A DNA stretch of 64,000 nt from a virus: IMG/VR virus record IMGVR_UViG_3300045988_152178. The stretch is one strand, 5' to 3'. Made by a program: the position numbers and the translations under genes. Position 1 is the stretch's first letter; each line of letters begins with the position of its first letter. Below, in pieces: positions 10,361-62,312 of the stretch. The notes beneath the pieces were generated by a model. It saw only the letters and a program-made list of their open reading frames with translations, was not told the DNA's origin and did no database searches.

Positions 10361-10480
10361 TTACGACAAGGCAACGAAAGCATAAAAGCATAAATACATA
10401 AAAACATAAATACACAAAAGCACAAAAGCACGCATAAACGCACGTTTGTGCGTTTATGTATTTATGTGTTTATATATTTA

Positions 10481-10640
10481 TTGATTTATTTCTTTCTTCA
10501 TTGGTTTATTTATTTCTTTCTTCATTGGTTTATTTATTCCTTCGTTGGTTGGTTTGTTTCTTCATTGGTTTATTTATTCCTTCGTTGGTTGGTTTGTTTC
10601 TTCATTTATTTCTTTCTTCATTAGTTTCTTTGTTCATTCA
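10481..10640. repeat. T-rich degenerate direct repeats, including an exact 40-bp tandem duplication (10521-10560 = 10561-10600); candidate centromere (parS)
   Basis: Read directly: TTCATTGGTTTATTTATTCCTTCGTTGGTTGGTTTGTTTC occurs twice, flanked by related TTTCTTTCTTCATTGGTTTATTTAT units. Lies 280-430 bp upstream of parA. Confidence 0.8.
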
Positions 10641-10826
10641 TTGGTTTATTTCTTGATTGATTTATTAGTATATTTGTTTCAATACATCAATCCATACATA
10701 AAAGCATTAAAAATATTAAAAACATTTGGTGGTTTAAAATTAAAACCTTAACTTTGCAGCATTAAAACACAAAAGCATAAAAGCACAAATGTGCATTTAT
10801 GCGTGGATGCGTTAGTGGTTTTATTG

Positions 10827-10854
10827 AAAGAAAGAAACATAGCTTTCTTTCTTT
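10827..10854. promoter_or_regulatory. palindrome AAAGAAAGAAA-6nt-TTTCTTTCTTT upstream of parA (candidate operator)
   Basis: Perfect 11-bp arms, 63 nt upstream of the parA ATG. Confidence 0.45.
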
Positions 10855-10916
10855 GAACAAAGAAATGAATACATTAATAAATATATATATATAAACGAAT
10901 TAATACTTTTAAGATT

Positions 10917-11789
10917 ATGGCAGAAACAAGATTAAAAGAAATCCTCGCCTTCGTAAATCACAAGGGGGGAGTTGGTAAGACAACAACCGTACAGAGTTTG
11001 GCAACTGGTCTTCGCCGTTATGGTAAAGGTTACTTTGGTAGGGGTGAAGATGGCAAGGAGCGCAAACCTCGTATCTTGCTTATTGATTTGGACCCTCAGT
11101 CAAGTCTCTCCTTCCTCTTCGGATGGAGTGAGGCAGAGAATATCGGAAAGCCTACTGTATACGATGCGATGATACAGCAGTCTCCCTTGACCGTCTATCA
11201 GGTAAGAGAGGGCATCTATCTTGCTCCAGCATCTTACCGGCTTATCAATATCGAACCTTTCCTTAATCAGATGCCGGTACCACGCAAGGCTTTGTATAAG
11301 TTATTCGGCAAGCCGCTGACGGAAGTACGAGGCGACGAATTGGCTACAGAAGGAGTTTTATCTATCCTGGAGGCTTTCGATTATGTTCTGTTAGACTGCC
11401 CACCAGCGCTATCTCTGCTTACGCATAACGCCCTGTCGGTGGCAACGGGTGTGGTAATACCTATCCAGCTCGAAATGCTGGCAACGAAAGGTATTGCCGA
11501 AATTCTGAATGCGGTGCAGGAAACCCGTGAAGACTTGAATCCTGATATTGATATTCGAGGCTTGTTTATGGTGATGAGTAATGATCAGACGAGAGCCACT
11601 AAGCAGTTTAAGGAGTATCTGGGCAATAAGTTTGATGATTACATGTTCGATTCGTACACCCGTCGAGATACGAAGATGGTAGAGGCGCAGGCTATCAATC
11701 AGGATATATTCTCTTATTCGCCTTACAGCAGAGTAGGGCAGGACTACGAGAATTTTACGAAGGAAATTTTGGCTAGTATGCCGGAATAA
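10917..11789 (+). CDS. parA: ParA/Soj-family partition ATPase
   Basis: Deviant Walker A FVNHKGGVGKTTTV at the N-terminus and the Walker B-like YVLLDCPP. Length (290 aa) and context fit. Confidence 0.9.
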   Translation: MAETRLKEILAFVNHKGGVGKTTTVQSLATGLRRYGKGYFGRGEDGKERKPRILLIDLDPQSSLSFLFGWSEAENIGKPTVYDAMIQQSPLTVYQVREGIYLAPASYRLINIEPFLNQMPVPRKALYKLFGKPLTEVRGDELATEGVLSILEAFDYVLLDCPPALSLLTHNALSVATGVVIPIQLEMLATKGIAEILNAVQETREDLNPDIDIRGLFMVMSNDQTRATKQFKEYLGNKFDDYMFDSYTRRDTKMVEAQAINQDIFSYSPYSRVGQDYENFTKEILASMPE

Positions 11790-11818
11790 TGATGTTTAAT
11801 TTTTAGTGATTTACGATT

Positions 11819-12232
11819 ATGGCAAGACAAGCAAAAAGTAGCATACATAAGTTTGAAGGTTTGGAAGATTCGCCAGCCATCAAAGGTATAGAAAAGATTT
11901 ATGAGGCAAATGAGGAAGCTCGCCAGAAGCGCGCTGCCGAGGCATTGGAGAAACAGCAGAACGGGCAGGGTACCGCAGAGTCGGAACCTGCACCCCAGGC
12001 TGAAGCACCTTCGCAGTCTCCGGTTCCTCCTGCATCAGCCGCTCCTATTTCTGCTCCCGACCCTGCACCTATGAGAAAGGCTGGCAAGAAGACGCAGAAC
12101 GGTATCACCATCTATGTGCCGATGGATTACTACATGCAGATATTGCAGATGAAGATGGAGACGGGTACGCCTATCAAGGACATCGCTCTGCAGGCAGTCA
12201 TCGAGTATCTGGATAGACATAAGAACGGATAA
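11819..12232 (+). CDS. ParG-like centromere-binding protein (ribbon-helix-helix C-terminus)
   Basis: Pro/Ala-rich disordered middle, then ITIYVPMDYYMQILQMKMETGTPIKDIALQAVIEYLDRH, which fits a strand-helix-helix pattern. Lies directly downstream of parA. Confidence 0.6.
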   Translation: MARQAKSSIHKFEGLEDSPAIKGIEKIYEANEEARQKRAAEALEKQQNGQGTAESEPAPQAEAPSQSPVPPASAAPISAPDPAPMRKAGKKTQNGITIYVPMDYYMQILQMKMETGTPIKDIALQAVIEYLDRHKNG

Positions 12233-12236
12233 TGCA

Positions 12237-12320
12237 GGTAAACGAAAAGTCAGATTTGAAGGTAAACTGAAAAGTGGTTTTGAACCTATTTACCTTTCTG
12301 AATCTGACTTTTCGTTTACC
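12237..12320. repeat. Iteron cluster A: one exact and one degenerate direct copy plus one inverted copy of GGTAAACGAAAAGTCAGATT
   Basis: 12237-12257 direct, 12261-12281 degenerate, 12301-12320 exact reverse complement. Confidence 0.85.
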
Positions 12321-12419
12321 TAAAAACGAAGTCTTTAAATAGAAAATTATAAGATTATAGATATTATATATATTAGTAAAATCTTAATAGTTTAGTTTTC
12401 AGATACTTATAAAGCTACT

Positions 12420-12551
12420 GGTAAATGAAAAGTCAGATTTTGGTAAATGAAAAGTCAGATTTAGGTAAACGAAAAGTCAGATTTAGGTAAACGAAAAGTC
12501 AGATTTAGGTAAACGAAAAGTCAGATTTAGGTAAACGAAAAGTCAGATTTG
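12420..12551 (+). repeat. Six contiguous 22-bp iterons GGTAAAYGAAAAGTCAGATTTN ending 2 nt before the rep ATG (replication origin / rep operator)
   Basis: Units start at 12420, 12442, 12464, 12486, 12508 and 12530. Preceded by an A/T-rich stretch (12322-12419). Confidence 0.9.
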
Positions 12552-12553
12552 AT

Positions 12554-13846
12554 ATGAATGAAGATAATGAAAACAAGGGTTTAGCCTGGATAAATACTCC
12601 TTTTTCGCTCACGAAACTGGATAAGCAATACACTTTGTTCCAGCAGAACGTGTTGATGCTAACGAGTACCCACCTCCAAAAATTTGTGGATGAGTACTTC
12701 CTGGAGAAAAGACAGTTGGGCGACGCTCGTTCTGATTTTCTTTTTGAGCAAGGCGTGGATCATGCTGTGATGAATATCCCGCCTATCAAGATAGATATTC
12801 ACGATTTCATTACTTACGAGAATATGAGCTATCAGAAGTTGAGAGCGGAGCTGAAGACAAGTATTCTTGATATGGCGGTGAAGAGCACACTGCCCGATGG
12901 CAGCGAGGAATTTACGCATATATTCAGCCGAATGCGTATACCGTTATCAAAGAACGGATATACGACTAAGGACGGAAAGAAGGTGGACCGCATACTGGGA
13001 TATATCCTGCTTGAGATTGACCCGAAACTTTCTAAGCGTGTATTCGATATGGGGCAGGGGTATATTCACCATATATCCATGATAGCAAAGTTTGCCAAGA
13101 ACGTGAACACTCCACGCGTATATATCTATCTCTTGCGTCAGATAGGTTTGAACCGCAGCATGGATATATCGGTGCCTTTCCTGGAACTGAAGTCTTATCT
13201 CGGTTTGGTAGAACTAGATAACAACAAGAAGGAGATTCTGCTAAATGAACTTGGCGAACCAGTAATGAACAAATATCCCAAGTTCTCGCAGTTTCGGAAG
13301 CAGGTTCTCGATGTGGTGTGTAGGGATTTGCAGAGGATGGAGAAGTTATCGCAGACGGACATTGTATTTGATGAACTGAAAGACGATGACATCATCTATA
13401 AATCGGGCAAGAGGAAAGGTGATCCTGAGTTTATCAGGTTTCACGTCAGGCGCACAGTAGTAGGTGAGAATCATTTATCCAAGGATAAGAACACCGATAT
13501 TGCCGCTACTCTGAATGAGCAATACAAGCAGAACAGCGTACAGAAGAACGGAAAACTGGTAGAGGGTGATATATTCGCCCATGTGCATCAGTCTATGGAA
13601 AGCAAGATTATAACCGAGAGCGGACAGGGCACCGACAAGTGGAAGGCATTCTGCAAGCTCATTATAGGCGACGCTGAAAAATCACTGGTTTCTCGCATTT
13701 CTTTCGTCGGCATGAAGAACGACAGGTTCTGCGTAGAGTGCAGCGATGATGACTTTGATATGATACGGAAGTTGGGTATCGAGGAGAAGGCAAAAGAGTT
13801 CTTCGATTGCAAAGGTTCCTTAGCTCCGGTATTCTACCGAGGTTAA
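12554..13846 (+). CDS. Replication initiator protein (Rep_3-like, iteron-binding)
   Basis: N-terminus INTPFSLTKLDKQYTLFQQNVLMLTSTHL resembles the Rep_3 pattern (a.y.L.l.eq.ll). The iteron array abuts the start. Confidence 0.6.
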   Translation: MNEDNENKGLAWINTPFSLTKLDKQYTLFQQNVLMLTSTHLQKFVDEYFLEKRQLGDARSDFLFEQGVDHAVMNIPPIKIDIHDFITYENMSYQKLRAELKTSILDMAVKSTLPDGSEEFTHIFSRMRIPLSKNGYTTKDGKKVDRILGYILLEIDPKLSKRVFDMGQGYIHHISMIAKFAKNVNTPRVYIYLLRQIGLNRSMDISVPFLELKSYLGLVELDNNKKEILLNELGEPVMNKYPKFSQFRKQVLDVVCRDLQRMEKLSQTDIVFDELKDDDIIYKSGKRKGDPEFIRFHVRRTVVGENHLSKDKNTDIAATLNEQYKQNSVQKNGKLVEGDIFAHVHQSMESKIITESGQGTDKWKAFCKLIIGDAEKSLVSRISFVGMKNDRFCVECSDDDFDMIRKLGIEEKAKEFFDCKGSLAPVFYRG

Positions 13847-13960
13847 AGGTAAAAAAGTAAAAAGGTAAAAAGAGCCTAGCGGGATATATCGCCCTGCTGT
13901 TCTTTTTACCTTTTTACCTTTTTACCTTTAAATATCCTTTTTACCCTTTTACTTTAAAAA
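13846..13960. repeat. Inverted clusters of GGTAAAAA (3 forward, 4-5 reverse) flanking a 31-bp spacer just after rep
   Basis: Forward copies at 13848, 13857 and 13864. Reverse TTTTTACC copies at 13903, 13911, 13919 and 13938. Confidence 0.8.
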
Positions 13961-16666: not shown

Positions 16667-17194
16667 ATGACAAAGGAAATTATAGAAAAAATTACGCAGC
16701 ATGGTAATTCGTTAGACGTTAATGACCTAAATGCTGAAGAGAAGAAGAACTTGGCTGAGTTTTTATCGGCCAAAGGCTTTACTGATTCTACCTTTTACCT
16801 TCGTTTCTTCCAAAAAGGTTTCGATACTTGGGAAATCCAGGGTATCAATAACTGCAAAAGTCAGTACTTAGGTATGCCTGGTATATGTAAGGTATTACTT
16901 GAGTACGTTGAGCGTGATGCCTTGGGTAACGAGATAGGCGATAAGGGTTATCTCTATACTCTTGCCCAGAGTGATAAGCCGGGTGTATTCTATTCCTGTT
17001 TGAAGCAGGCAGCAAACGGCTTGTGTATGAAGCTATACTCCTTCATGGAAGAACGTGGCATGAGCCGTACTACCATCATCAAGCGTTTCTCGTCTGATGA
17101 CTGGAAGACTTGGGAGAAGGTAGGCATCAAAGCCTTGCTGGAAGAATTTCTTCAAATGAGAAATGAGAAACTCGAAATGGCGAACAATAAATGA
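16667..17194 (+). CDS. hypothetical protein (175 aa from the ATG at 16667; the track start at 16610 overlaps the promoter)
   Basis: Reads MTKEIIEKITQHG.... First gene of the rightward operon, opposite the repressor-like gene. Confidence 0.65.
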   Translation: MTKEIIEKITQHGNSLDVNDLNAEEKKNLAEFLSAKGFTDSTFYLRFFQKGFDTWEIQGINNCKSQYLGMPGICKVLLEYVERDALGNEIGDKGYLYTLAQSDKPGVFYSCLKQAANGLCMKLYSFMEERGMSRTTIIKRFSSDDWKTWEKVGIKALLEEFLQMRNEKLEMANNK

Positions 17195-17877
17195 TTGACA
17201 TAACTATTGATTTTGAAACGACCTCACTTGCACCTACCGCAGCCATCATGAGTGTTGGCGCGGTAGCGTGGAAGCGGTATGACGAAGAAAGTCCGTTCTT
17301 CGGGAGAGGAGACGGATTGCTGAGGTACCCAACCTTTTCGGCTCACGTCGATTTGCGAAGCTGCTTTGTAGAGGGTTTCACTTTCGACCAAAGTACGGCT
17401 GAATGGTGGTCGCATCAGAGTGAAAAAGCAAAACAGGCTTTGCTTGATTATGATGATGGGGACAATCCTTGTCTCCCTATTGATATAGTCATTGCCGATT
17501 TGCTCGGCTGGATAAAGGATGATGTGCAGGAAGCGCTTGGAGATACAGAATTGTGTCTTTGGGCACAGGGCACCGATTTCGACATCGCTATTCTGAGATA
17601 TGCTTGCTACAAGTTGGGCATCAAGTTTACTATTAAGCATACCCAGTTTAGGGACCATCGCACATACTATCTGGAAGGCGCTCGTTTGCTATGGCTGTTA
17701 AACAATGCGCTTGGCCATGAGAAAGTTCCTTTTAGTGTTGACTGGGCATATAAGCAGACTCAAGACTATCAGGATATTGCCGATGAGGGTGCTGCCCATG
17801 ATCCTATCTTTGACTGCAAGCGAAGTATCTATAGTACTTGGCAGATGATGAAGAAGATAAGAGAAGCCTATGCCTAG
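17191..17877 (+). CDS. DnaQ-like 3'-5' exonuclease (DEDDh)
   Basis: ExoI ITIDFETTS, a mid-region GTDFDIAIL, and ExoIII AHDPIFDCKRS (H-x4-D). Confidence 0.7.
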   Translation: MIDITIDFETTSLAPTAAIMSVGAVAWKRYDEESPFFGRGDGLLRYPTFSAHVDLRSCFVEGFTFDQSTAEWWSHQSEKAKQALLDYDDGDNPCLPIDIVIADLLGWIKDDVQEALGDTELCLWAQGTDFDIAILRYACYKLGIKFTIKHTQFRDHRTYYLEGARLLWLLNNALGHEKVPFSVDWAYKQTQDYQDIADEGAAHDPIFDCKRSIYSTWQMMKKIREAYA

Positions 17878-18286
17878 GCTATTCGATTTGCCTTATATCC
17901 CTAACCGGACGGGCATACAGCAAAGGCACAGGAACCTATCCCGATACAGAATGCTGCATCGTTTCGCCTATACCGAGACGATGAGCGGACTGAGGGATGA
18001 TATACCGACCCTCCTCTTTTATGCGCCCTTTGCCCTGCTGAAAGATACCTGTGAGTATCTTTGCAGGATGATGACGGGCTGCGTGGAAGATATGATTATC
18101 ACGCCGTCGCATAGCTGCCGACGCAAGAACGGCAAGATATACTGGAGGCAGGAGGTGCAGATTATCGGTCTAGATACCGATTTCCTCACGATGGAAAGTC
18201 TCTCGCAGATGATAGTACATCGTATGGAAACCATCTGTAACTGTAAGATAAGGCATTATCGCCTGGAAACATTTCTGAATTTATAA
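17870..18286 (+). CDS. hypothetical protein (138 aa)
   Basis: ORF overlapping the previous stop by 8 nt. Confidence 0.55.
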   Translation: MPRLFDLPYIPNRTGIQQRHRNLSRYRMLHRFAYTETMSGLRDDIPTLLFYAPFALLKDTCEYLCRMMTGCVEDMIITPSHSCRRKNGKIYWRQEVQIIGLDTDFLTMESLSQMIVHRMETICNCKIRHYRLETFLNL

Positions 18287-18876
18287 AAAGAAAAGATATG
18301 AAGAAATAAAAGATATTCTGCATGACATCATGCAAACTTCGGTACGATATACACTTCGTTTCCGATTTTTATTTTGTTAGACAACCGAGCCATCGGTTAA
18401 ATGGTAGGAAGAACTGGACGGGTAATGAGTGAACGCTGCAAAGCTTCACTGATAAGTTGATACCCTCCACCGTAGCCTCGGAACGATAAGTGAAAAGTCT
18501 GATTAAAAAGCCTGGAAAATACTTATCGATGCGGTAATGATGCAGTCTCAAAATTTGGCGGTGTTACCCCGAAAGTTCTTCTTTCTTTGAAACATTGATA
18601 AAAAGAGAATAGGGGAGGCATTCTGGAAACGCTCTTATGAAAGGGTAGTGAAAGCTGTAATGCTCCATGACTACGATTCACTGCATCATTGCCGGTGTTG
18701 GAAAGACGCGGGGACCGTTTCACCTCTGCGTCTTGGCGTAGGAAATATTCAGCAGGCGAGTACCACAGATTTTCAAATGCTCCGCTCGCTCTAGAATATA
18801 ACCCGGCAAGGTGTAAACACTTGAAGTTTTGCCTTCCCTTTCTCTTTTACTATATAAATACTCTTGATATAAAGAT

Positions 18877-21800
18877 ATGTTATTCCATCCCATATTGAAC
18901 CAGCTTGCCAATCTTGACATGGCTTTCCTCGTAAAACCTGCCGATGAGCAGCGTATCGAGGGACAGACTGCCTGTTTCTGTCCGTTCTGTCAGAAGGAAG
19001 AGGCAGACGATGGCGAGCAGGGCAAGGTAAAGCAGACACCACACCTCATTATCTATCATAATGAGCGTGGCGGTATGTATAACGGCGTAGGGGTGGAAAA
19101 CAATACCCAGGCAGAGCATGGTGCCCTGCGCTGGATGTGTACCAAGACCGGCAAGTATGGCTACGGAGCCTTAGAACTCTATGCCGCCATGCGCAAGCTG
19201 CCGATGCACGGAGCCAGTCTCTTGCGCCTATGCCATGACCTCATCGTAAGGGTATATGGCGATAACGAGAAGACGAGAGCCAAATGGCCTATGCTCTTTG
19301 CCAAGATGGACTATCGGACAATCGCGCAACAAACGATAGAGACTTTCTCTTTTATGCCAAAAACAGATTTCAATCCCCAGGAGCTTGCAGCCCTGGGGTG
19401 CGAAGTCACATCAGTAAAAGGCATTCCGCAGTACGGCTTCGGCAAGGACTTCAACACAAAGATGCTGAACGAAGATTTCCGCATCTATGCCGTGGACCAG
19501 GTAATGCTGCCTAACGTGGTGAGAAACGGACAACTGGTAAGTGAAGTGATTTATGGAACACCCTGGAACCCGCTGTTCGTTTGCTTCGCTACCGACGTGA
19601 TAGCGCCGCAAGGCAGTTGCGGATGCTTCTTCCGTCCAGCCATGCAGCAAGACCCGATAGTCTTCTCTACCTGTGAGGATCACAGCGTAAGGAAGGTGAG
19701 CAAGTGGCTGATGGGTGACAAGGTTTTCACCTATGCGATGGACCATCGGAGTAACAACTCTACTGCCGTTCACTCGGCCATAGAAAAGTTGCAACCGGGA
19801 GAGGCCTATACGGAGATGAAAGAAATATGGGTAGAGAACGAAACCAAGGATGGTGAACCGAAAGGCACTTTTCATATTGAGGAGGAACCTATAGAAGTAG
19901 GCGACATCAAGGCTCAGAATATCGTTTTCTGCCGGACACCGGAAGACGCAGTGAGCGTTTATTACGCCATGCGTTCCCTGCGTCAGGATAAGGCACAGGA
20001 TAAGCATTTTCAGCAATACTGCTGGTACCACGTAGCCTTCTCGCTTGGCAGAAGAAATTTCTGGTATATCGAGCGTGGGCAGTGGAGGCAGGAAAAACTC
20101 GACTTCAATGCCGTGCAGTATCAGAAGATGAAGCGATTTGCCGAAAGGGTTATTATGATTTACCCTAACGACATCGCCAGCCAAAGGGATTGTGGCGCTA
20201 TTGCAACCAAGTATTGCGATATATGTTATGCCACGCTGCCCGATGGCTTCAGAAGCAGATATAACCAAAGGTGGAACTGGTTGTACGGTTGCTTACCACG
20301 AAGCGTGAGAGATTATCTGATGTGTTATCAGATGACCGATGCCGACAACTTTAAGTTCGATCACGATATAAGGTTGCCGCTATACTCAAGGTTGCGGGGT
20401 GCCAACAATACGGACCCATTCGAGATAGAATATCCTCGTGACCCGAGAAGCGGCAAGCCGAAACCACCTACCTGCAAGGTGTCGCCTACTAAGGTGTGGC
20501 TCTTTATGACGTGCCACGGATATTACAGAATGATAGACCCTGAGAGTACCGACCTCGTAGGTCAGTATATCCACCTGGATAGATGTTTTGTTGAGTACAT
20601 CGACCAGAAGAGTATCATCCAGGCAACAAAAACCCAACTTTTGCAGTTTACCGAACAGAGTTGGCGGCACAATGATCAGGAGCGCAAGATGATGTCAGAC
20701 TGCGCCAACCTGATAGACAAGAATTTCAGCGAGAAATCGGCTGGAGGCTTACAGGGCATGGTGATAGACTTCACCGAGAGTTTCGATGCCCATACGGAAT
20801 ATTTCTTCTTCCGCAATGTAGCGTTGAAGATTACGCCCGAAGCCATCACACCAGTCAGCTATGAGAGGTTGAATTTCTTCATCCCATCCCTGGCAAAGAA
20901 ACCGTATGATTTCACGATGAGGGTGTTCAATCCTCCTTTCGTTATCAGCGAGAGCCAGGAATATAAAGACAAGGTAGCATCCATCGCCCAAGAGGAAGCG
21001 CAGGTTAACGAGGACGGTTCACCTGTCTTCACAAGAGCCGAAATCGACCAGAAGAAAGCCGAGCTTAAAGACTGGGCGCAGACCTTCCGCTGGCAGGTTG
21101 ATTGGCAAGGCAAGCAGGAGAAAGAACTTTGGCCTATACTGAGAGTGATACGCGGCTGCTGCAATATGCAGTGGCGACTGGAGCAGGATAGTATTCGCAA
21201 CAAAGAACCGATGCCTGCCGAAGCCATCGCCGACATCAACTCTCATTTTGCCAACATGATTTCCTGTTTGGGAAGGATTTGTTACCGCTCATGGGCCAAC
21301 ATGCAGAGTATCTGCCCTTATCTCCTCGAAGATGAGGTGGAGGACGAGAAGCAGGCAAGTGGCGGTTCTGGTAAATCACTCATGGTGAATCTCGTGGTAG
21401 GTTCAGCAGTGAATATACTTCGTGTCGATATGAAGGACTTCGTTACGATAGCCGATGCAAAGTTCTGTCTGTCCGACCTGTTGATATATCCCGGCAAGTT
21501 TAGAGTAGTGCATTGGGAAGATAAGCCTTCGGGTTTCCCGATGAAGTACTTTTATAATAAGGTAACGGCGGGAGCCAAGGTAGAACGAAAGTTCGGCGAC
21601 CCTATCGTCTTCAAGCTGGAAGACTCACCATTAAACGTGATTACCAGTAACTCGCAGTTGAGTGATGACGATGAGAGTACTATCGGACGTTTTCCCCTGG
21701 TATCATTATCCGATAGATTTTGCCGTGAAAACCCGATGCAGCATAAGGTAGCGCGTTCACCAAAGGAAGTGATGAAAAATCTCGTAACAGACCCAGAAGA

Positions 21801-22557
21801 GTTGAATGAGCGAGACCGCAACCAGGCGATATATATCTGTGCCCTAGCCGTTCAGTTCATCATGCGCTATCATACCTTTGTGATTGCTCCTCAGAAGAAC
21901 GTTCAGCGAAGATTGATGGTAAGAGAGCTGACCGAGAACACGGTGAACTACTTCGAGTGGTTCTTCAGCCGTAACGAGGTATATTCAGCGCCTATCTGTG
22001 CAGACGAAATGTTTAATGAGTTCATGCGAGATTGGGCTGATGCCAGTGAGGGCAAGAGTAAGGAATATAGTCGAGCCACCTTCAAGAAGAAAATCAAGAA
22101 GTATTGCAAGAATATGAATATCATCTGCAATCCTGATAACCTCCTGGTAGGGGAGGACAATAAGCGCCACGGCTGCTTCAAGCTTCGAGCCTGGGTAACG
22201 GAGGAATACTTCGTAGGCAGAGAGTGGGAGAATGATGACAGTGTGGAGCCGAAACTCATCCGCAGGGTGAAGACGAGCAAACACGTCTATTTCTTCTTCC
22301 GCAGCGGTAAGGATCACATTCCAGAAAGCTATGACGAGTTGAAGCGGATAGCGAAAGAGTATGTGGAAGGTCCCGACCCATTACCTTATCGTGATGACGA
22401 TGGTAACATCGTTACGCTCACTACTGAAGAGGAGGAACGCTGGAAGGCTTTCACCTCCCGCAAGCAAGGTAGAAGGCAAGCTATACCTAACGGTAGTGAT
22501 AGCAATAATGCAGCAGCTACGGTAGGCGAAATAGATAAGAGCGGTCTGCCGTTCTAA
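18877..22557 (+). CDS. Primase-helicase: N-terminal CHC2-like zinc finger and degenerate TOPRIM-like region, C-terminal P4/D5-family SF3 NTPase
   Basis: CFCPFCQKEE...KQTPHLIIY resembles the DnaG zinc finger. FCRTPEDAVSV and IMIYPNDIASQRD are TOPRIM-like. Walker A is SGGSGKS, followed by RVVHWEDKP and KVTAGAKVERKFGDPIVFK...VITSNSQLSDDDESTIGRFPLVSLSDRF, typical of the P4-family primase C-terminal domain. Confidence 0.7.
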   Translation: MLFHPILNQLANLDMAFLVKPADEQRIEGQTACFCPFCQKEEADDGEQGKVKQTPHLIIYHNERGGMYNGVGVENNTQAEHGALRWMCTKTGKYGYGALELYAAMRKLPMHGASLLRLCHDLIVRVYGDNEKTRAKWPMLFAKMDYRTIAQQTIETFSFMPKTDFNPQELAALGCEVTSVKGIPQYGFGKDFNTKMLNEDFRIYAVDQVMLPNVVRNGQLVSEVIYGTPWNPLFVCFATDVIAPQGSCGCFFRPAMQQDPIVFSTCEDHSVRKVSKWLMGDKVFTYAMDHRSNNSTAVHSAIEKLQPGEAYTEMKEIWVENETKDGEPKGTFHIEEEPIEVGDIKAQNIVFCRTPEDAVSVYYAMRSLRQDKAQDKHFQQYCWYHVAFSLGRRNFWYIERGQWRQEKLDFNAVQYQKMKRFAERVIMIYPNDIASQRDCGAIATKYCDICYATLPDGFRSRYNQRWNWLYGCLPRSVRDYLMCYQMTDADNFKFDHDIRLPLYSRLRGANNTDPFEIEYPRDPRSGKPKPPTCKVSPTKVWLFMTCHGYYRMIDPESTDLVGQYIHLDRCFVEYIDQKSIIQATKTQLLQFTEQSWRHNDQERKMMSDCANLIDKNFSEKSAGGLQGMVIDFTESFDAHTEYFFFRNVALKITPEAITPVSYERLNFFIPSLAKKPYDFTMRVFNPPFVISESQEYKDKVASIAQEEAQVNEDGSPVFTRAEIDQKKAELKDWAQTFRWQVDWQGKQEKELWPILRVIRGCCNMQWRLEQDSIRNKEPMPAEAIADINSHFANMISCLGRICYRSWANMQSICPYLLEDEVEDEKQASGGSGKSLMVNLVVGSAVNILRVDMKDFVTIADAKFCLSDLLIYPGKFRVVHWEDKPSGFPMKYFYNKVTAGAKVERKFGDPIVFKLEDSPLNVITSNSQLSDDDESTIGRFPLVSLSDRFCRENPMQHKVARSPKEVMKNLVTDPEELNERDRNQAIYICALAVQFIMRYHTFVIAPQKNVQRRLMVRELTENTVNYFEWFFSRNEVYSAPICADEMFNEFMRDWADASEGKSKEYSRATFKKKIKKYCKNMNIICNPDNLLVGEDNKRHGCFKLRAWVTEEYFVGREWENDDSVEPKLIRRVKTSKHVYFFFRSGKDHIPESYDELKRIAKEYVEGPDPLPYRDDDGNIVTLTTEEEERWKAFTSRKQGRRQAIPNGSDSNNAAATVGEIDKSGLPF

Positions 22558-22560
22558 CCT

Positions 22561-22585
22561 CCGTTCCCAGCGATTCCATCGCTAG
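22561..22585 (+). repeat. Conserved hairpin element, copy B
   Basis: CCGTTCCCAGCGATTCCATCGCTAG, 3 nt after the stop. The outer pair is weakened (GG to AG). Confidence 0.9.
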
Positions 22586-22609
22586 TCATCTTAAAGTCAG
22601 AAACCAAAA

Positions 22610-22864
22610 ATGGCAAAGAAAGAAGAAACAAAGAAGAAAGGCATAAGGGTAGCCAATCGGCAAGCCTGGGTAGATACCTTCGTGTATCTTTGCCCGCAGC
22701 ATCGAGGCGGTACAGGCCCCGGTGAGTATTGCGAGAATCCGGACGGCACCCGAACCAACTGCACGGGCAGATGCACCTACACCGGTAGCGGAGCCTGCGA
22801 GCAAGTGACGCAGTTCTTCAAAACATATAGTAAGTTCGTAAACAAGGAAATTGAATTTCTATAA
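22610..22864 (+). CDS. small Cys-rich protein (84 aa)
   Basis: ORF starting MAKKEETKKKG.... Five Cys within CPQHRGG...CENPDGTRTNCTGRCTYTGSGAC. Confidence 0.6.
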   Translation: MAKKEETKKKGIRVANRQAWVDTFVYLCPQHRGGTGPGEYCENPDGTRTNCTGRCTYTGSGACEQVTQFFKTYSKFVNKEIEFL

Positions 22865-22878
22865 AAATAAAAAGCAAA

Positions 22879-24078
22879 ATGAAAATACAAGCGCAATCAT
22901 CACTCTTGCTTCGTCAGGCTTTACAGAAAGCTGCGAAGTGTATCGACAGCAAGACCGCTATCGCCATCTTGAGCAACGTGCTCTTAACCCAGCGCAAGGA
23001 AGACGGCAAGTTCTTCTTCGTATCAGCAACAACAGATTCGGAGCTCATCATTCCTGCACCTTTCAGCATCGTAGAAGGCAGCTTTAAGGAAGATGTCGTT
23101 CTGCCTATCACATCCCTTTTATCTCTCCTCTCCACCCTCCCTTCTGACTGCGTAGTCACCATGGACCTCTCTGAGGATAAGAATCGCTCAATGAGCATCG
23201 AGTACTGCACCCAGAACGGCGAAAATGTGAAGAGAGGCACCGTGAGCCTGGTATATTTCAGCGCAGAGGCATTCCCTCGTGCAGCGCAGCCCGATAATGC
23301 CAGTCTTCACATCTCTCTGCCGATGGCAACCTTCAGCAATGTGCTTTCTCATGCCGGCAAGTTTGTATCCGATTCCGAGCTTCGCCCAGTGATGAGATGC
23401 CTCTGCATCGATGTAGCAGAGGATAGAAGTGAGGTTATCTTTGCAGCCTCCAACGGCCACGTCCTTATCAAGTTGATTCATACCAACAACCCCGAAACGG
23501 GGGGCAGTAACTTCTTCCGTAGTGGAACACCGGGAAAGATTCTCGTATATAGCTCCTTCTTCAAGACCCTTTCCGTTTTCGACGACTGCGAGGATATTGA
23601 TATTGAGGCAAATGAGAAGGTGGTACGCTTCACATCAGGAGATGATATTACCTTCGTCTGCAAGAAGGCAGAGGGTCAGTACCCTAACTACAACTCCGTG
23701 ATTCCTCGCAACAACCCTTATAAGGTTACAGTAGATAAGCGAGAACTGGCAAGTGTGGTGAAGCGTGTGGCACTCTTCTCCAGTGAGAGCAGTAACCTGA
23801 TCGTCCTAAAGAAGGATGGCATGTTCCTCGATATTTCCGCTCAGGACTTAGACTTTAATATGTCGGCCAACGACCAGGTGCTCATCACCGACGGCACTTG
23901 TCCGGAAGGTCATCGCATCGGTTTCAAGGCGAGCAGTCTGCTCGATGTCCTGGCACCTATCCCAGATGATACCGTTATCCTGCACCTGGGCGACCCAAGC
24001 CGTGCAGGAGTTATCACCGCCAACGATTCATCACCACGAGCATTGACCCTGCTCATGCCGATGATTTTGGACGAATAA
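22879..24078 (+). CDS. dnaN: DNA polymerase III beta subunit (sliding clamp)
   Basis: By-eye alignment to DnaN along its length: AIAILSNVLL, ATDSEL, AEAFP, LRPVMRCLCID, ASNGHVL, EGQYPNYNSVIP, IGFKASSLLDVL, LLMPM. Length 399 aa. Confidence 0.9.
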   Translation: MKIQAQSSLLLRQALQKAAKCIDSKTAIAILSNVLLTQRKEDGKFFFVSATTDSELIIPAPFSIVEGSFKEDVVLPITSLLSLLSTLPSDCVVTMDLSEDKNRSMSIEYCTQNGENVKRGTVSLVYFSAEAFPRAAQPDNASLHISLPMATFSNVLSHAGKFVSDSELRPVMRCLCIDVAEDRSEVIFAASNGHVLIKLIHTNNPETGGSNFFRSGTPGKILVYSSFFKTLSVFDDCEDIDIEANEKVVRFTSGDDITFVCKKAEGQYPNYNSVIPRNNPYKVTVDKRELASVVKRVALFSSESSNLIVLKKDGMFLDISAQDLDFNMSANDQVLITDGTCPEGHRIGFKASSLLDVLAPIPDDTVILHLGDPSRAGVITANDSSPRALTLLMPMILDE

Positions 24079-44021: not shown

Positions 44022-46103
44022 TTACACGTTCCTTCCGTCCGGCAGTACGAACCAACCGATATTGCCTCGCCAGAATTTGCATCCTAAATATAGAGAGTCA
44101 AAGGCATCGGTAAAGTCAGTTCTTTGCTGCAATGGCAGATTTTCTTCCGTTTCCGGCTTTTTCTCCTGACTCTTATCCTTTCGGAATCCCTGATAGCCGA
44201 TACTTACCTCACAAAGCTGCATGGCAATAATCAGGTCGGGATTGTTAAGCTGATTGATGCGGATGGCGGGATATTCTATGCCGGCAAGACCATTATTGAT
44301 GATGCGGTGCTTCACCTCATGCTTCTCTGGCACACCCATATCTATCGCCGTCACATTCCAACCATTGCGCTCCAGTTCTTTGATAACTGCCTGATAGAAT
44401 CGCTCATCTGTCAGCGCATACGAGGCACCCTGTTTTGCCGTAGCGTCATAGAAGTAAACCACATCACGGTTTACGGCTCTCTTTGGCGCATAATAGCGAG
44501 AAAAATCATCTATCAACTCCCTCAGCTTGCGCTCGTTCTTCACATAGAAGCTCTTGATAACATTGACTGCCTCCACTCCGTCACGTTGATATACCTGACC
44601 TACCACCAACGTATTGATGTTGGCGTTATAGTCAAATGCGAGATAGAGAGGAAGGTCGTTCACGCAGTCAGCATCCATACGGCAGTCGTTTCTTTCGGAT
44701 AGCTCCTTCAAGTCCGGCTGATAGCTTTCTGAAGTAATCTTCTTGCCACCGATAATGCCCGTAGCCTTTTCTGTGCGGAAATTAGCCTGAGATAGCGGGT
44801 CAATCTCATCGGGGATATAACCATGCACATGATCTATATCCAGGTTAGAATAGAAGCCATCGTTCGATTTCTTAATTTTTACGTTCAATATCGAGACCAT
44901 GAACGTATAGGGTGGAAGATCACGCTTCATCTGTCGGATATACTCCTCACCCAGAACGTCCACATTCGAAAGGGTAGATGCTCTTCTTACCACGAAAGCG
45001 GAGCGCCTTAACTCTCTCAGATACCCGTCCTGAAACTTTTTGGAACGCAGGAACATCTGCATCTCAAAATCTTCCTCCGGCGTAATCAGATATTCGTAAT
45101 CATAGATGAGTTCGGCATCCTCGGCAGTAACTAACTTGTAGTTCACTGCCATATCCACCATGTTTTTGGTGATTTTCTTACCATGGTTAGGCAGAATACG
45201 GAACATACCTTCATGCTTCAGCATTTTCAGCGCCACGGCACGGATCATTGTCTTTACCTCTGCTGGTACTACGTGAGGCGTGTGCCTCGTCTTCTTGGCA
45301 TTATAGAGCAGGTCGTTATATCTGATTACCTTGTCGGCATAGTCTTCCAGCTCGCCCTGCACCCATCGGTAGGTCTTGCCCTTAAACTTACCCGTCTCTA
45401 TTTCCAAGTCTAACTTTTCGTCCTCACGCTCCAGCCATGAGCCTTTTGCCGTGAGCGAGGCATCACTCACGAAACGGGTAGAGCGATAGAGAGGGTTGTA
45501 GTCAGAAAAGTTGATGTCGCCCAGCGGGTGTGTCTGTCCTGATAATGCCGGCATCAACTCCTCATCCACCTTCTTTTTCGGGAAGAACCTGCACTCATCC
45601 CCCACACATGCACTAAAAGTGTAACTGTTGGCACTTGCCGTCTGTGAGAGAGAAATCAATGCCCATTGTGCGCCATTGGCAAACCAGATGATGTTTTCAT
45701 AGCTTTTCGGTTTGAAGATAGAAGGGCGCACATGCTTGGGTGGTCGCCCCCAACCCATGTGAATGCCTATCTGAAAACCGAACATTCGCTCCATTGCCGC
45801 CATGGTACCCGGTATGGTTTTCGAGAAGCCCTGTTGTCGTGATACGGCTACCCATGCGCCCAGCATACCCGGCATGGAGTTGCTGGTCATCCATACGTAG
45901 GGTGCTACAAGACCATCGGTCTTTCCTGTGCGTCGAGCTGCAATATCTCTCTCGTCTCGCGCACCCATATATAGCGATTGTTGCTGAAATCGTGTTAAGT
46001 AAATCTGATGTGGTTGCTGCATAATAGTAAAATTGTTATCCTGAATGTATGTTGATTTCAAAACAGAGAAGGCTGCGCCATTTCGAGCTGAATGCGTTTG
46101 CAA
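44022..46103 (-). CDS. terL: Terminase large subunit
   Basis: Walker A-like ARRTGKTDG, Walker B-like VGDECRF, C-terminal nuclease-like AFDYNANINTLVVGQ. The likelier start is MQQPHQ at 46022, which avoids a 46-nt overlap. Confidence 0.85.
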   Translation of the reverse strand: MQTHSARNGAAFSVLKSTYIQDNNFTIMQQPHQIYLTRFQQQSLYMGARDERDIAARRTGKTDGLVAPYVWMTSNSMPGMLGAWVAVSRQQGFSKTIPGTMAAMERMFGFQIGIHMGWGRPPKHVRPSIFKPKSYENIIWFANGAQWALISLSQTASANSYTFSACVGDECRFFPKKKVDEELMPALSGQTHPLGDINFSDYNPLYRSTRFVSDASLTAKGSWLEREDEKLDLEIETGKFKGKTYRWVQGELEDYADKVIRYNDLLYNAKKTRHTPHVVPAEVKTMIRAVALKMLKHEGMFRILPNHGKKITKNMVDMAVNYKLVTAEDAELIYDYEYLITPEEDFEMQMFLRSKKFQDGYLRELRRSAFVVRRASTLSNVDVLGEEYIRQMKRDLPPYTFMVSILNVKIKKSNDGFYSNLDIDHVHGYIPDEIDPLSQANFRTEKATGIIGGKKITSESYQPDLKELSERNDCRMDADCVNDLPLYLAFDYNANINTLVVGQVYQRDGVEAVNVIKSFYVKNERKLRELIDDFSRYYAPKRAVNRDVVYFYDATAKQGASYALTDERFYQAVIKELERNGWNVTAIDMGVPEKHEVKHRIINNGLAGIEYPAIRINQLNNPDLIIAMQLCEVSIGYQGFRKDKSQEKKPETEENLPLQQRTDFTDAFDSLYLGCKFWRGNIGWFVLPDGRNV

Positions 46104-46825
46104 GCCTTGTCGTAATATTCTTTGTTCAGTTCAAAGCCGATAAAGTTGCGTTTTTCACGGATTGCTGCGATGGCAGTAGTGCCGCTGCCCATGCAGTTGT
46201 CTAAGATAGTGTCGCCCTCGTTGGAGTATGTACGGATAAGATACTGGATAAGGGCGACTGGCTTTTGGGTGGGGTGCATATCGAGATGTTTTTCTTTCTC
46301 GAAATAAAGCACCGAGATGGGATATTTTTCGGTTGTTACTTCTTTTGAATAAGTCTCAATACTATAGCTGCCATAGCAAGTATTACCTTTCACCTTTCCA
46401 TGTTTGCGGCCTCTTGAATGAGAAGGAAATCCTTGTCGCATTTGAGGATTATATGTAGGCAAAGCCCGATAGAAGACTGCAATATCCTCATGACTTCTCA
46501 TAGGCATCTTCTTTGCGTTCAGAAACCCCGTAGGTCGGTCTTTCTGCCAAATCAGATTATACCGCCAATTTTTAGGCTCTGCCATCATCAGTTGAGCCGT
46601 AAACATTCCTTGACAGAAAAGGATGATGGGAGCGTTAACTTTCGCTATACGCCAATACTCTTTGAAAAGAGGTTCGATAGGAATAATATTATCCCATTGA
46701 GCTTTTTCATTACCTCGGTTCAGAACCTCATAAGGCAAATCGCAGATAATGCAATCCACGCTTGCGTCCGGAATCTTTTTCATTCCTATCAGGCAATCCT
46801 CATTATAAATCTTATTTAACTCCAT
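46058..46825 (-). CDS. DNA methyltransferase (beta-class N6A/N4C, motif IV before motif I)
   Basis: IICDLPYEV (DPPY-like) near the N-terminus and DNCMGSGTTAIAAIREKRNFIGFELNKEYY near the C-terminus. Confidence 0.9.
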   Translation of the reverse strand: MELNKIYNEDCLIGMKKIPDASVDCIICDLPYEVLNRGNEKAQWDNIIPIEPLFKEYWRIAKVNAPIILFCQGMFTAQLMMAEPKNWRYNLIWQKDRPTGFLNAKKMPMRSHEDIAVFYRALPTYNPQMRQGFPSHSRGRKHGKVKGNTCYGSYSIETYSKEVTTEKYPISVLYFEKEKHLDMHPTQKPVALIQYLIRTYSNEGDTILDNCMGSGTTAIAAIREKRNFIGFELNKEYYDKACKRIQLEMAQPSLF

Positions 46826-48522: not shown

Positions 48523-49373
48523 TTACAATGTTAAATCAATACCAAACTGACCTTCTAGGAACTTCTTGAAATCCGGTTTACCGAATAGCGTGCCGTTCGC
48601 CTTTTCCCAATCTTTATTGTTGGCATAGAATACATCACGCGTAAACCATTCGTAAATGTTATCGTATCTGCTTATTGCTGGCGAGTCAGGATGTGTATCT
48701 AAAAATTTCTGTCCGGCACGCAGATAAGCCTTGGCTATGCGGGGATGCTTCTGAAACTCGATAAGGCGTTTGTGTCTTGAAGCCAGCGGGCAGCACATAC
48801 AGCCGAGTCTTCGGGTAACGTCGATTTGCCCCCCGTATCATAATATACTGGTGCCAGCTTCAATCCTCTGTCGAGAATGAAATCCCTTACGTCTTCATTA
48901 GTCCACTCTAAGATAGGGTAAATCTGCTCCACATGGTTCTCTTCTTTCTTTGCACCAAAATATCGGCACTCGGTAGGCTCATTATATCTTTCCTTTCTTG
49001 CTCTGCTTTCTTCTTTGCGCACACCGATAACGGTTTTATCGAGGATTTTATATTCCTTCAGAACCTCACAGCAGAAACGACTGAAGCGATTAGGGAACCC
49101 TTTCTTTGCGACAAGCTGAAAGAAATTCTCTTTAGGTCTGATAATTTCCACACCCATCTCCTTCACGTGGGCGATAGTGCCCGGTGGGTCGATGGTGGTG
49201 TTCTTGTATATCGCCCGATACTTGATACCGGCTTCCTTAGCGAGTTGAAGAATCACATCACTATCTTTACCGCCCGAATAAGCCAGTTCTATATCTCCAT
49301 CGTACCTTTTCTGTACGCTTTGCAGGAGACGGATAGACTGCTCTATCTTTTTCTGTAATTGCTCGTTTATCAT
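48523..49373 (-). CDS. PAPS-reductase-family (DndC/BrxP-like superfamily) protein, interrupted by a frameshift at a G6 run
   Basis: N-terminus ELAYSGGKDSDVILQLA (the PP-loop SGGKDS). The conserved C-terminal RRLGCMCCP is encoded in the -1 frame (track ORF 48523-48798). The frames meet at the C6 run at 48829-48834 on the plus strand. Confidence 0.75.
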
Positions 49374-61169: not shown

Positions 61170-61199
61170 GTTCAAAGTGAATATCCAGTACCGTTACAA

Positions 61200-61232
61200 T
61201 ACAGACTGAGTACAGACTGAGTACAGACTGGG
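61200..61232. repeat. 11-bp tandem repeat TACAGACTGRG x3
   Basis: Read directly in the kinase-thyX intergenic region. Confidence 0.85.
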
Positions 61233-61245
61233 CACAGATAAAATA

Positions 61246-61356
61246 ATGGCAAAAATAACTACCCATTCACCCATCGCGGGTATATCAGGCAAGCTGCATA
61301 AGATAGGTAACATCTTTGCCTTTGTCTCCAATCGGTATGGCGTGATAGATTTTTAA
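61246..61356 (+). CDS. small hypothetical protein (36 aa, below the track cut-off)
   Basis: Reads MAKITTHSPIAGISGKLHKIGNIFAFVSNRYGVIDF. The aaaataATGGCAAAAA start context is shared with many genes here. Confidence 0.3.
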   Translation: MAKITTHSPIAGISGKLHKIGNIFAFVSNRYGVIDF

Positions 61357-61383
61357 TATATAAAACATCAAATAAGAAACAAT

Positions 61384-62283: not shown

Positions 62284-62287
62284 GCCT

Positions 62288-62312
62288 CCGTTCCCAGCGA
62301 TTCCATCGCTGG
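62288..62312 (+). repeat. Conserved hairpin element, copy G
   Basis: Exact consensus. Starts 4 nt after the thyX-like stop and ends 28 nt before the mazG ATG. Confidence 0.9.

Follow-up and report, generated by a model that had tools for sequence, protein, structure and literature searches.

The region described here spans positions 10380-13931 of a 64,000-nucleotide (nt) stretch of viral DNA, the IMG/VR record IMGVR_UViG_3300045988_152178, which is called the window throughout. It contains, in this order, two arrays of short boxes separated by T-rich tandem repeats, a gene for a small partition ATPase (parA), a gene for its putative partner protein, two clusters of iterons with an AT-rich stretch between them, a gene for a predicted replication initiator (rep) and an inverted repeat at the rep stop codon. 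The features are the following:

10380-10467 (no strand): centromere-like array A, with seven direct and three inverted boxes phased at 8 bp and an imperfect 45-nt palindrome
10480-10654 (no strand): T-rich tandem repeats ATTGGTTTATTTCTTTCTTC, between arrays A and B, with a period of 20 (8.8 copies) and a period of 40 (3.6 copies)
10767-10802 (no strand): centromere/operator-like array B, in which the 8-bp RCAYAAAN unit occurs three times in direct and once in inverted orientation, with the parA start about 115 bp downstream
10917-11789 (plus strand): parA, encoding a small Walker-type partition ATPase of 290 amino acids (aa) (exact coordinates of the open reading frame, ORF; Pfam, PHROG and PDB searches)
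11819-12232 (plus strand): gene for a putative ParG/omega-like centromere-binding partner of 137 aa (profile, AlphaFold2 (AF2) model and Foldseek)
12237-12320 (no strand): iteron cluster 1, with a perfect direct copy (12237-12257), a degenerate copy (12260-12283) and an inverted copy (12300-12320)
12325-12419 (no strand): AT-rich stretch between the iteron clusters, a candidate DNA-unwinding element (DUE)
12420-12550 (plus strand): iteron cluster 2, with six tandem 22-bp iterons (98% matches), ending 3 bp before the rep ATG
12554-13846 (plus strand): rep, encoding a predicted 430-aa iteron-binding initiator, a divergent member of the Rep_3 superfamily with two winged-helix domains (WH1-WH2) (homology, family profile and fold)
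13843-13931 (no strand): terminator-like inverted repeat at the rep stop codon, with 31-nt arms that are 97% complementary and 8-bp units AAAGGTAA around a GC-rich loop

The parA product carries the deviant Walker A motif KGGVGKTT at residues 16-23 and has no N-terminal extension or domain of the helix-turn-helix (HTH) type. In Pfam it matched AAA_31 (9e-35) and CbiA (2.8e-11), and among the PHROGs it matched PHROG 164, 'ParA-like partition protein' (1.5e-49), while its closest PDB structures were Soj/ParA proteins (1e-22 to 7e-28), followed by delta of pSM19035 (2oze, 8.5e-8). The ParA that an initial annotation, made by a model from the letters and their ORFs, had placed at 10917-11789 was therefore borne out in three databases and at exactly these coordinates. 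The partner gene starts 29 bp downstream of parA, and its product comprises a conserved basic N-terminus with a helix, a disordered linker of variable length rich in Pro, Ala and Gln, and a C-terminal ribbon-helix-helix (RHH)-like domain (approximately residues 95-135), an architecture that is the same across all par variants. Searched alone, this protein had no family match in Pfam, PHROG or NCBIfam, and a profile of 14 homologues matched the RHH protein ORF56 of pRN1 over residues 92-135 with a marginal E-value of 0.012. Its AF2 model showed a helix at residues 19-47, stretches within residues 58-84 where the predicted local distance difference test (pLDDT) score fell below 50, an extended segment and two helices at residues 102-115 and 119-134, with a pLDDT of about 65-77 across residues 95-134, which hold the extended segment and both helices. 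In Foldseek, nearly all of the top 27 or so matches of this model were RHH proteins (ORF56, CopG, Arc, CdbA, AmrZ, MatP and antitoxins), none of them significant (E≥0.23), as expected because the RHH-like domain has only 40 residues. The small protein with a disordered middle that had been proposed at 11819-12232 was thus recovered, and its RHH-like C-terminus is tentatively supported by this profile match, the modelled fold and the non-significant RHH matches. On one 14-kb contig of a relative (L007:6136-9642) the parA-partner pair is present as a tandem duplicate, which could be an assembly artefact or a true duplication of the partition cassette.

Upstream of parA, the box unit RCAYAAAN, composed of a GCAT/GCAC core and a 4-bp A/T spacer, was found 15 times (ten in array A, four in array B and one stray at 10696), compared with 0.37 expected per 450 bp. 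Within array A, forward boxes start at 10380, 10388, 10396, 10404, 10412, 10420 and 10432, and reverse boxes at 10444, 10452 and 10460; array B pairs with array A, with 82% complementarity over 45 nt. Both arrays lie inside the coordinates of the initial annotation, yet they were absent from its description. The T-rich segment between them, whose sequence varies among par types, may be a bent spacer or a part of the partition site. Moreover, in relatives with a Rep identical to that of the window, a ParA that is 81% or 67% identical and a partner of about 30% identity, the GCAY-N4 boxes are replaced at the equivalent site by GTAC boxes with 4-bp spacers, which occur 17-27 times against about two expected and are not found in the window. 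The candidate centromere would thus switch together with the partner protein, as is expected of a centromere. Taken together, a small deviant-Walker-A ATPase free of an N-terminal DNA-binding domain and an upstream, multi-repeat, partner-specific predicted centromere were found, which are among the traits of a type Ib partition locus.

Downstream of the partner gene, eight matches to the iteron GGTAAACGAAAAGTCAGATTT with at most one mismatch were detected, all confined to this locus in the 64 kb, where none is expected by chance. The six tandem iterons of cluster 2 are probably the core of the origin and also the operator of rep. In cluster 1, the direct and the inverted iteron form a perfect 21-nt inverted repeat, which is a candidate site of Rep-dimer binding and copy control, and the degenerate ninth iteron carries an indel and resembles the iteron GGTAAATAGAAATGTGGTTTTA of a Segatella copri plasmid. 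The nine 22-bp iterons of the initial annotation were therefore recovered as a total (six tandem, one direct, one degenerate and one inverted), but not as a single array of nine. The GC content falls to 17% over positions 12321-12419 and to 13% over 12340-12400, compared with 44% in the window. No match to the DnaA box TTATCCACA, the consensus of E. coli, was found at up to one mismatch in positions 12233-12553, and its matches across the window were at chance level; DnaA boxes are common in the origins of iteron replicons, but they are not universal. Furthermore, iteron arrays with a 22-bp period and 3-7 units were located directly upstream of rep in 29 of the 31 related loci examined, and the sequence of the iteron switched with the Rep clade, giving four different iterons, with the units AAGGGTATAGTTTTCGGTACCA in a clade of Reps at about 38% identity and TCACTACAAATGTGGCTAAGTT or CCACAAATGTAGTGAAACCTGG in one at about 34%. 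Tandem iterons next to rep that co-vary with the Rep clade, together with an adjacent AT-rich element, are what a Rep_3 replicon is expected to present. At the other end of rep, the hairpin at 13843-13931 is probably a terminator-like structure at the boundary of the module and not a Rep site. Its inverted 8-bp repeats had been considered as Rep half-sites in a control locus of the incA kind, which was ruled out because the repeat unit does not co-vary with the Rep type: across the window and four relatives (L008, L051, L055 and L068) the 7-8-bp units of the post-rep hairpins were AAAGGTAA, TAGTTGA, GAATGTT and GTGATTA, independently of the Rep type. The unit TAGTTGA of L008 recurs upstream of the par region of the same relative, and the post-rep hairpins may be recombination boundaries of a swappable cassette.

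Regarding the initiator, the Rep of the window searched alone had no significant match in Pfam, in NCBIfam (E≤0.1) or in sequence searches of the PDB and, these direct searches having failed, the assignment was made through an alignment of 20 homologues. The resulting family profile matched the WH2 domain of the R6K protein pi (2nra, E=4.9e-6) and, searched individually, 16 of the 20 homologues matched Pfam Rep3_C (best 4e-6) and three matched Rep3_N. When the AF2 model of Rep (pLDDT 69) was compared with PDB folds, each of the 12 top-ranked structures was an iteron-binding initiator (RctB domains 2-3, RepE, pi or a Rep-DUE complex), with probabilities of 0.84-1.0 and E-values of 1e-4 to 4e-3; the template modelling (TM) scores were low (0.2-0.39) because domain orientations differ. 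Three independent routes, based on homologous sequences and on a predicted structure, thus agree that the 430-aa protein is a divergent member of the Rep_3 superfamily that lies below the Pfam threshold. The ORF proposed at 12554-13846 was hence confirmed, whereas its likeness to Rep_3 could not be reproduced by direct search and was recovered by the family profile and the fold. In addition, Rep has an extra C-terminal domain of about 75 aa (approximately residues 355-430; 13616-13846 in the window), which is the most conserved part of the family. Its modelled topology is alpha-alpha-beta-beta-alpha-alpha-beta, and a weak Foldseek match to domain I of DnaA (4tps_B/D, E of 0.6-1.1, TM-score 0.55) gives a hint of resemblance to that domain.

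The closest annotated relatives of this replicon were found in plasmids. A tblastn search of Rep against 72,556 plasmids returned three records, all from Segatella and all annotated as replication initiators, with 58%, 44% and 44% identity over the full length. The first is the Rep of plasmid unnamed2 of S. copri DSM 18205 (NZ_CP085934), a circular plasmid of 58.9 kb that carries metabolic, toxin-antitoxin and insertion sequence genes and no phage genes, and in which ParA, a small ORF, iterons and Rep follow one another in the same order as in the window. The other two belong to a 93-kb element of S. copri HDE06 and a 317-kb element of S. hominis, which are among the large extrachromosomal elements of the S. 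copri complex, of 72-329 kb, described in closed Segatella genomes by Blanco-Miguez et al. (PMC10635906). A scan of species-representative genomes added further Reps of the 58% type in the 'extrachromosomal' record of S. copri HDD04 (135 kb) and in plasmid unnamed2 of strain G8 (90 kb). These Segatella replicons (NZ_CP085934, NZ_CP137558, NZ_CP137560, NZ_CP152485 and NZ_CP146525) share the Rep family along its full length (44-58% identity), the extra C-terminal domain included, and those of the 58% type have seven 22-bp iterons (GGTAAATAGAAATGTGGTTTTA in unnamed2) that end 4 bp before rep and begin, as the iteron of the window does, with GGTAAA. In contrast, the 3′ half of their iterons is unlike that of the window, the plasmid ParA is only 41% identical to the ParA of the window, the partner has no similarity detectable by BLAST, and these elements carry metabolic, fimbrial, SusC/D, transposase and even integrase or mobilisation genes, with no virion genes. 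Accordingly, the 93-kb HDE06 'plasmid' was ruled out as a cultured copy of the phage, as it has no phage or virion genes. A plasmid-type Rep (58% identity) was also located inside a 3.14-Mb contig of S. copri H-2632 (NZ_JAVSCC010000001.1), where an integrated plasmid and a scaffolding artefact are both possible. No match was obtained for Rep by tblastn against 50,697 GenBank phage records, nor for the region by megablast against GenBank phages.

Among viral sequences, 51 IMG/VR contigs carried a relative of Rep with 34-100% identity, and parA was located directly upstream of rep in all 48 of the loci with enough flank. Four types of ParA and partner (ParAs 41-81% identical, partners about 30%) combine freely with at least three types of Rep and iteron, as in the case of a ParA of the window type at 98% identity that stands beside a Rep at 38%. 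The co-variation of iterons with Rep and of boxes with the partner, seen at the sequence level, is what would be expected of working protein-DNA pairs.

The genome to which this module belongs was followed beyond the window. Over its last 6.2 kb the window is identical to the ENA contig BRIT16-1 scaffold_139 (96,382 bp), the window being the first 64 kb of its reverse complement, and another contig is 99.9% identical at the other end of the window. Samples with the element include ERZ28572094 (BRIT16-1), ERZ27229777 and ERZ28643546. The remaining ~32 kb were rebuilt from the BRIT16-1 contig and IMG/VR relatives, with the last ~22 kb of the source genome seen only via relatives. Judging from the relative positions of rep, the endolysin gene and other anchor genes, the independently assembled contigs are circular permutations of one map, of about 94-107 kb; the large contigs cluster at 87-111 kb (median 101.8 kb), and the gene order is kept across dozens of samples. 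No exact terminal overlap was present in the four IMG/VR contigs with both ends examined. Circularity, which had been proposed as a check on episomal maintenance, is therefore inferred from the permutation between assemblies and not from a closed contig, and such a permutation would fit just as well a virion genome with terminal redundancy that is packaged by the headful mechanism and becomes circular upon entry, as that of P1 does. A further metagenome scan gave the same size picture except for one 165-kb contig. Two outsize contigs have a Rep of the phage type, ERZ27246448:k141_20124 from the ENA (170,862 bp) and ERZ1034701 NODE_1 (165,062 bp), and all others are of 111 kb or less.

Many contigs end about 1.1 kb upstream of one gene, and these ends were considered as fixed genome termini. 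This was dropped because a tandem array with units of 20-40 bp that breaks short-read assemblies is the better explanation, as other contigs run through it. In the window this array consists of at least eight copies of the 20-bp unit CACCACCCCACYAGGAGGAG at positions 1-140 and continues upstream (L017:1-240), and more than ten independent assemblies end in it; relatives have 40-bp units at the same position (L213:9130-9306). It lies between a divergent gene for a Cro/C1-type regulator and the early operon, and may serve as an operator array, as a second (lytic) origin or in packaging. The regulator, an HTH protein with a conserved C-terminal zinc ribbon (…TSTFCPHCGKKVRVGVVLL), is encoded on the minus strand in all 15 relatives with enough flank and is placed as follows:

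L205:8410-8868, L213:8298-8750 and L198:6109-6714 (minus strand): Cro/C1-type regulator, a short way upstream of the first window position on the genome map

Such a regulator is a candidate lysogeny repressor, which suggests a lysogenic switch.

In the parts that could be recognised, the gene content points to a tailed phage. The 2309-aa tape measure protein proposed in the initial annotation was corroborated by matches to PF10145 and to tape-measure PHROGs, whereas the proposed holin had a weak Pfam match only and the proposed TerL could not be confirmed in any ORF. Indeed, neither TerL nor a portal or major capsid protein was recognised by Pfam, PHROG or PDB searches of all large ORFs. The rebuilt remainder encodes, in order, a head maturation protease (phrog_53, 1.8e-24), a LysR-type regulator, a GH108 endolysin, large ORFs without matches, a beta-ketoacyl synthase and a giant ORF of at least 2167 aa, followed by a 432-aa ORF, a reverse transcriptase in some relatives, the minus-strand Cro/C1-type protein, the tandem array and the start of the window. 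The reverse transcriptase may be part of a diversity-generating retroelement. Nearly all large ORFs match nothing, and the lineage is accordingly very divergent; ORFs with no match in Pfam, PHROG or PDB include those at 44022-46103 (minus strand) and 18877-22557 (plus strand) of the window and at L078:12754-14571, L151:9305-12154 (minus strand) and L151:2-6502 (minus strand) in relatives. Phage replication proteins are encoded at 17191-24078 and 59231-60307, namely an Rv2179c-like exonuclease, a 1226-aa distant relative of TOPRIM primases, a beta clamp of DNA polymerase III and a PriCT_2 primase-like protein, and no polymerase was recognised. Accessory genes (60636-62730; 46058-46825, minus strand; 48735-49373, minus strand; L072:282-503; L014:16693-17598; L151:8048-9250, minus strand; L213:3018-4532) encode guanylate kinase, Thy1, MazG, N6/N4 DNA methylases, a protein resembling phosphoadenosine phosphosulfate (PAPS) reductase, a Tad2-like protein (on a short contig that matches the window near 33 kb), the LysR-type regulator, the beta-ketoacyl synthase and, in some relatives, the reverse transcriptase. 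Three of the DNA methylases are encoded in the window. Neither tRNA genes nor Rfam families were found in the window.

Regarding integration, precomputed Pfam matches and further scans, over about 100 ORFs, gave no match to integrase, resolvase or other recombinase families in the window or in the rebuilt ~32 kb, so that the lack of a recognisable integrase or recombinase first stated for the 64 kb was sustained and extended. Likewise, no contig larger than 200 kb was found across the 51 index blocks in which the exact Rep occurs and the 102 in which a 324-aa protein occurs, these two being the window proteins with the widest distribution. Neither an integrase with att junctions nor a failure of Rep or ParA in profile searches was encountered, ParA being matched directly and Rep, which had no match when searched alone, via its family profile. 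On these sequence grounds, positions 10380-13931 are, in our judgement, quite probably a complete plasmid-type maintenance cassette of a ~96-kb tailed phage that infects Segatella/Prevotella, bacteria from the human gut, and would persist as a low-copy circular plasmid prophage. A plasmid prophage is the best explanation because the cassette is complete, homologous to that of plasmids and co-varying, and because no integrase was found and a repressor-like gene is conserved. The episomal maintenance first deduced from the window is thus supported by the replicon and partition parts, the homology to Segatella plasmids, the lack of an integrase and the permuted contigs, and it is still an inference.

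A number of observations weigh against this interpretation. The origin has no DnaA box of the E. coli consensus, the Rep of the window has no significant match of its own in Pfam, NCBIfam or PDB sequence searches, and the statistics that assign the partner to the RHH proteins from its profile and its model are marginal (E=0.012 for the profile and E>0.2 in Foldseek). The four contigs examined at both ends have no exact terminal overlap, and the two contigs of 165 and 171 kb may represent concatemers, cointegrates or integrated copies. Moreover, with TerL, portal and capsid proteins unrecognised and most proteins outside any family, a very divergent integrase could hide among the ORFs, and the search for one covers the last ~22 kb of the source genome via relatives only. 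A module that occurs throughout the lineage, in the midst of early and replication genes, would also fit vegetative replication, and the extrachromosomal state, the low copy number and the production of virions are predictions from sequence.

Three other explanations were weighed against a plasmid prophage. In one of them, which we regard as unlikely, Rep and its iterons serve mainly as a vegetative (lytic) origin in the manner of lambda O/ori, in a virulent or pseudolysogenic phage whose ParA and partner position or retain the DNA in a carrier state. This would agree with the presence of the module in 48 of 48 loci, with its co-orientation with the early and replication genes (the exonuclease, the 1226-aa primase-related protein, the beta clamp and the PriCT_2 primase), with no second initiator or origin being identified and with no toxin-antitoxin or multimer-resolution gene being recognised. 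However, a three-part partition locus with a co-varying centromere is not known to play any part in growth that is purely lytic, the annotated Reps nearest to that of the window all belong to Segatella plasmids or extrachromosomal elements that are stably inherited and share its layout, the independent shuffling of par and rep is the signature expected of incompatibility among co-resident replicons, and the conserved divergent Cro/C1-type regulator suggests a lysogenic switch. Besides, both roles are compatible, and a shared origin is possible. P1 uses separate origins.

The element might instead be a Segatella plasmid or large extrachromosomal element that captured phage genes (a tail-like or defective prophage remnant) and forms no virions, which seems quite improbable. 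In its favour, TerL, the portal and the major capsid protein were undetected by Pfam or PHROGs, many accessory genes are host-like (the LysR regulator, beta-ketoacyl synthase, Thy1, guanylate kinase and PAPS reductase) and, apart from this element, only Segatella plasmids are known to carry the rep family. Nevertheless, the genomes are uniform at 94-107 kb with a gene order conserved over dozens of samples, and they encode the 2309-aa tape measure protein, a head maturation protease, a holin and an endolysin, together with giant ORFs that may be tail-fibre proteins (with no family match) and, in some relatives, a reverse transcriptase. IMG/VR classes more than 50 contigs as viral, the third-party annotation (TPA) records of GenBank name the element Caudoviricetes sp., and undetected capsid genes fit the extreme divergence of almost all proteins. 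An ordinary integrating temperate phage, with an integrase too divergent to be recognised or located in the unseen part of the source and with a par-rep cassette that was acquired or is a relic plasmid fragment, appears very improbable. Most ORFs could be assigned to no family, for about 22 kb of the source genome only relatives were examined, the two contigs of 165 and 171 kb exist and one Rep homologue of the 58% plasmid type is found on a 3.1-Mb S. copri contig, all of which would accommodate such a phage. Yet few families are as easy to detect as the tyrosine and serine recombinases, of which the ~100 ORFs yielded no example, no contig above 200 kb was returned from the 51 and 102 index blocks, and the contigs are circularly permuted. 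Furthermore, an intact cassette in 48 of 48 loci under co-variation constraints is incompatible with a relic.

If the cassette maintains a plasmid prophage, its mode of action can be proposed from its anatomy in the sequence, with the biochemical steps taken from the named families. In replication, Rep monomers, with WH1-WH2 domains as in RepE, pi and the RepA of P1, would bind the six phased 22-bp iterons upstream of rep and thereby open the adjacent stretch of 13-17% GC, so that a helicase and the replisome would be recruited. The replisome could be that of the host, possibly aided by the phage clamp, primase-like proteins and exonuclease. Occupied iterons overlapping the 5′ region of rep, together with the inverted iteron pair, would lead to autorepression and to copy control of the handcuffing type. 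In partition, dimers of the RHH partner would coat the 8-bp-phased arrays upstream of parA, forming a partition complex and repressing the operon, and the N-terminal segment of the partner would stimulate the ATPase of nucleoid-bound ParA, so that sister copies would separate. Partition would thus be of type Ib, as in ParF-ParG-parH of TP228 or delta-omega of pSM19035. Finally, in lysogeny the divergent Cro/C1-type regulator by the tandem-repeat array probably keeps the lytic genes off, and an integrase would be unneeded. Within the phage lineage, par and rep cassettes would be exchanged by recombination, the rep family being common to Segatella plasmids and extrachromosomal elements, and new incompatibility types would arise from such an exchange.

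The combination of iteron replication and ParA partition is classical among phage-plasmids, as in P1, with its RepA and 19-bp iterons (incC/incA) and its ParA-ParB-parS system. The phage described here resembles P1 in being a tailed phage with an iteron-flanked initiator gene, a ParA-driven partition operon with a centromere, no requirement for an integrase and a circularly permuted assembly. In contrast, partition in P1 is of type Ia, with a large ParA that has an N-terminal HTH, an HTH-type ParB and a downstream parS, while the window has a small ParA, an RHH-like partner and an upstream centromere (type Ib). There is no detectable similarity in protein sequence between the two, the host phylum is Bacteroidota in the case of the window, and neither Cre-lox nor an addiction module nor a separate lytic replicon was identified in its phage. 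The plasmid-maintenance region of P1 has been summarised previously (PMC10983915).

With respect to partition, the closest analogy is with ParF-ParG-parH of TP228, a type Ib system (PMC3130281, PMC7308502), and with delta-omega of pSM19035, which have in common with the window a small deviant-Walker-A ATPase, a small downstream protein with a flexible N-terminal tail, which in the window is a predicted dimer of the RHH type, and an upstream centromere made of boxes, which in the window is a candidate one. The parH centromere of TP228, which is bound by the RHH protein ParG, consists of degenerate 4-bp boxes with 4-bp AT-rich spacers, direct or inverted, upstream of the operon (PMC3130281). However, the 290-aa ParA of the window is nearer to Soj and chromosomal ParAs than to delta, its boxes are GCAY (GTAC in relatives) compared with ACTC in TP228, its arrays are split by a T-rich repeat region of ~280 bp, and its partner has a long Pro/Ala/Gln linker. 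Regarding the initiator, Rep shares with RepE of mini-F, pi of R6K and domains 2-3 of RctB a two-winged-helix fold, predicted for Rep by profile and by structure comparison, and with Rep_3 initiators in general an arrangement in which tandem iterons, each spanning about two helical turns, adjoin an AT-rich stretch and rep. It differs from RepE and pi in being ~100-150 aa longer, in its long N-terminal helix (residues 28-63) and in the conserved C-terminal domain absent from both, and from the Rep_3 family in scoring below the Pfam and NCBIfam thresholds and in its origin free of the E. coli-type DnaA box.

Mycobacteriophages such as RedRock carry parABS in place of an integrase, and SSU5- and N15-type phages are phage-plasmids. 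In both groups, as is proposed for the window, a partition cassette substitutes for integration in the upkeep of the prophage, but their partition types, initiators and hosts are others and there is no sequence relationship. Within the Bacteroidota, the one phage-plasmid that the literature searches brought up is Carjivirus communis (crAssphage), reported to have genes of the RepL type (PMC10983915; the final paper is cited in PMC12823448). It is likewise a gut phage without an integrase, proposed to persist extrachromosomally by plasmid-type replication genes. Nevertheless, it has two RepL-type genes, with neither a ParA/centromere module nor an iteron-Rep_3 replicon described, and it belongs to another phage order, is reported to be linear with direct terminal repeats and infects Phocaeicola/Bacteroides hosts. 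Literature searches returned context papers only, with no description of this lineage or of a phage-plasmid with ParA, RHH and iteron-Rep in the Bacteroidota. The statement of the initial annotation that phage-plasmids are hardly documented in this phylum must therefore be narrowed in view of crAssphage, although it holds, in the literature searched, for the ParA/RHH/iteron-Rep kind. The phage would thus be a well-supported candidate phage-plasmid of a known type, and the first from the Bacteroidota with a ParA/RHH/centromere and iteron-Rep module.

Two broader proposals follow and, taken jointly, they are tentative and rather doubtful. One is that this phage lineage and the plasmids and extrachromosomal elements of Segatella share a single pool of interchangeable rep-iteron and parA-partner-centromere cassettes; the other, that a C-terminus of Rep resembling DnaA domain I, in an origin with no DnaA boxes, marks a new subclass of Rep_3 initiators that would bring in the helicase on their own, with no need of DnaA. 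Cointegrates of the phage with plasmid elements might account for the 165-171-kb contigs. If the pool is indeed shared, the phage would carry plasmid replicons and incompatibility determinants from one Segatella strain to another by infection, and it could seed such elements or form cointegrates with them.

Overall, the Rep family links phages to the recently described extrachromosomal elements of Segatella, a keystone genus of non-Western gut microbiomes. Many apparently temperate phages of gut viromes have no integrase, and the present lineage offers a widespread Segatella/Prevotella example in which each part of the alternative to integration can be named. As S. copri is hard to manipulate genetically, the cassette of 1.7-3.5 kb is a candidate replicon for shuttle vectors, with several naturally compatible variants. 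Finally, the free recombination of four par types with at least three rep types would provide a natural system in which the diversification of phages driven by incompatibility can be followed.

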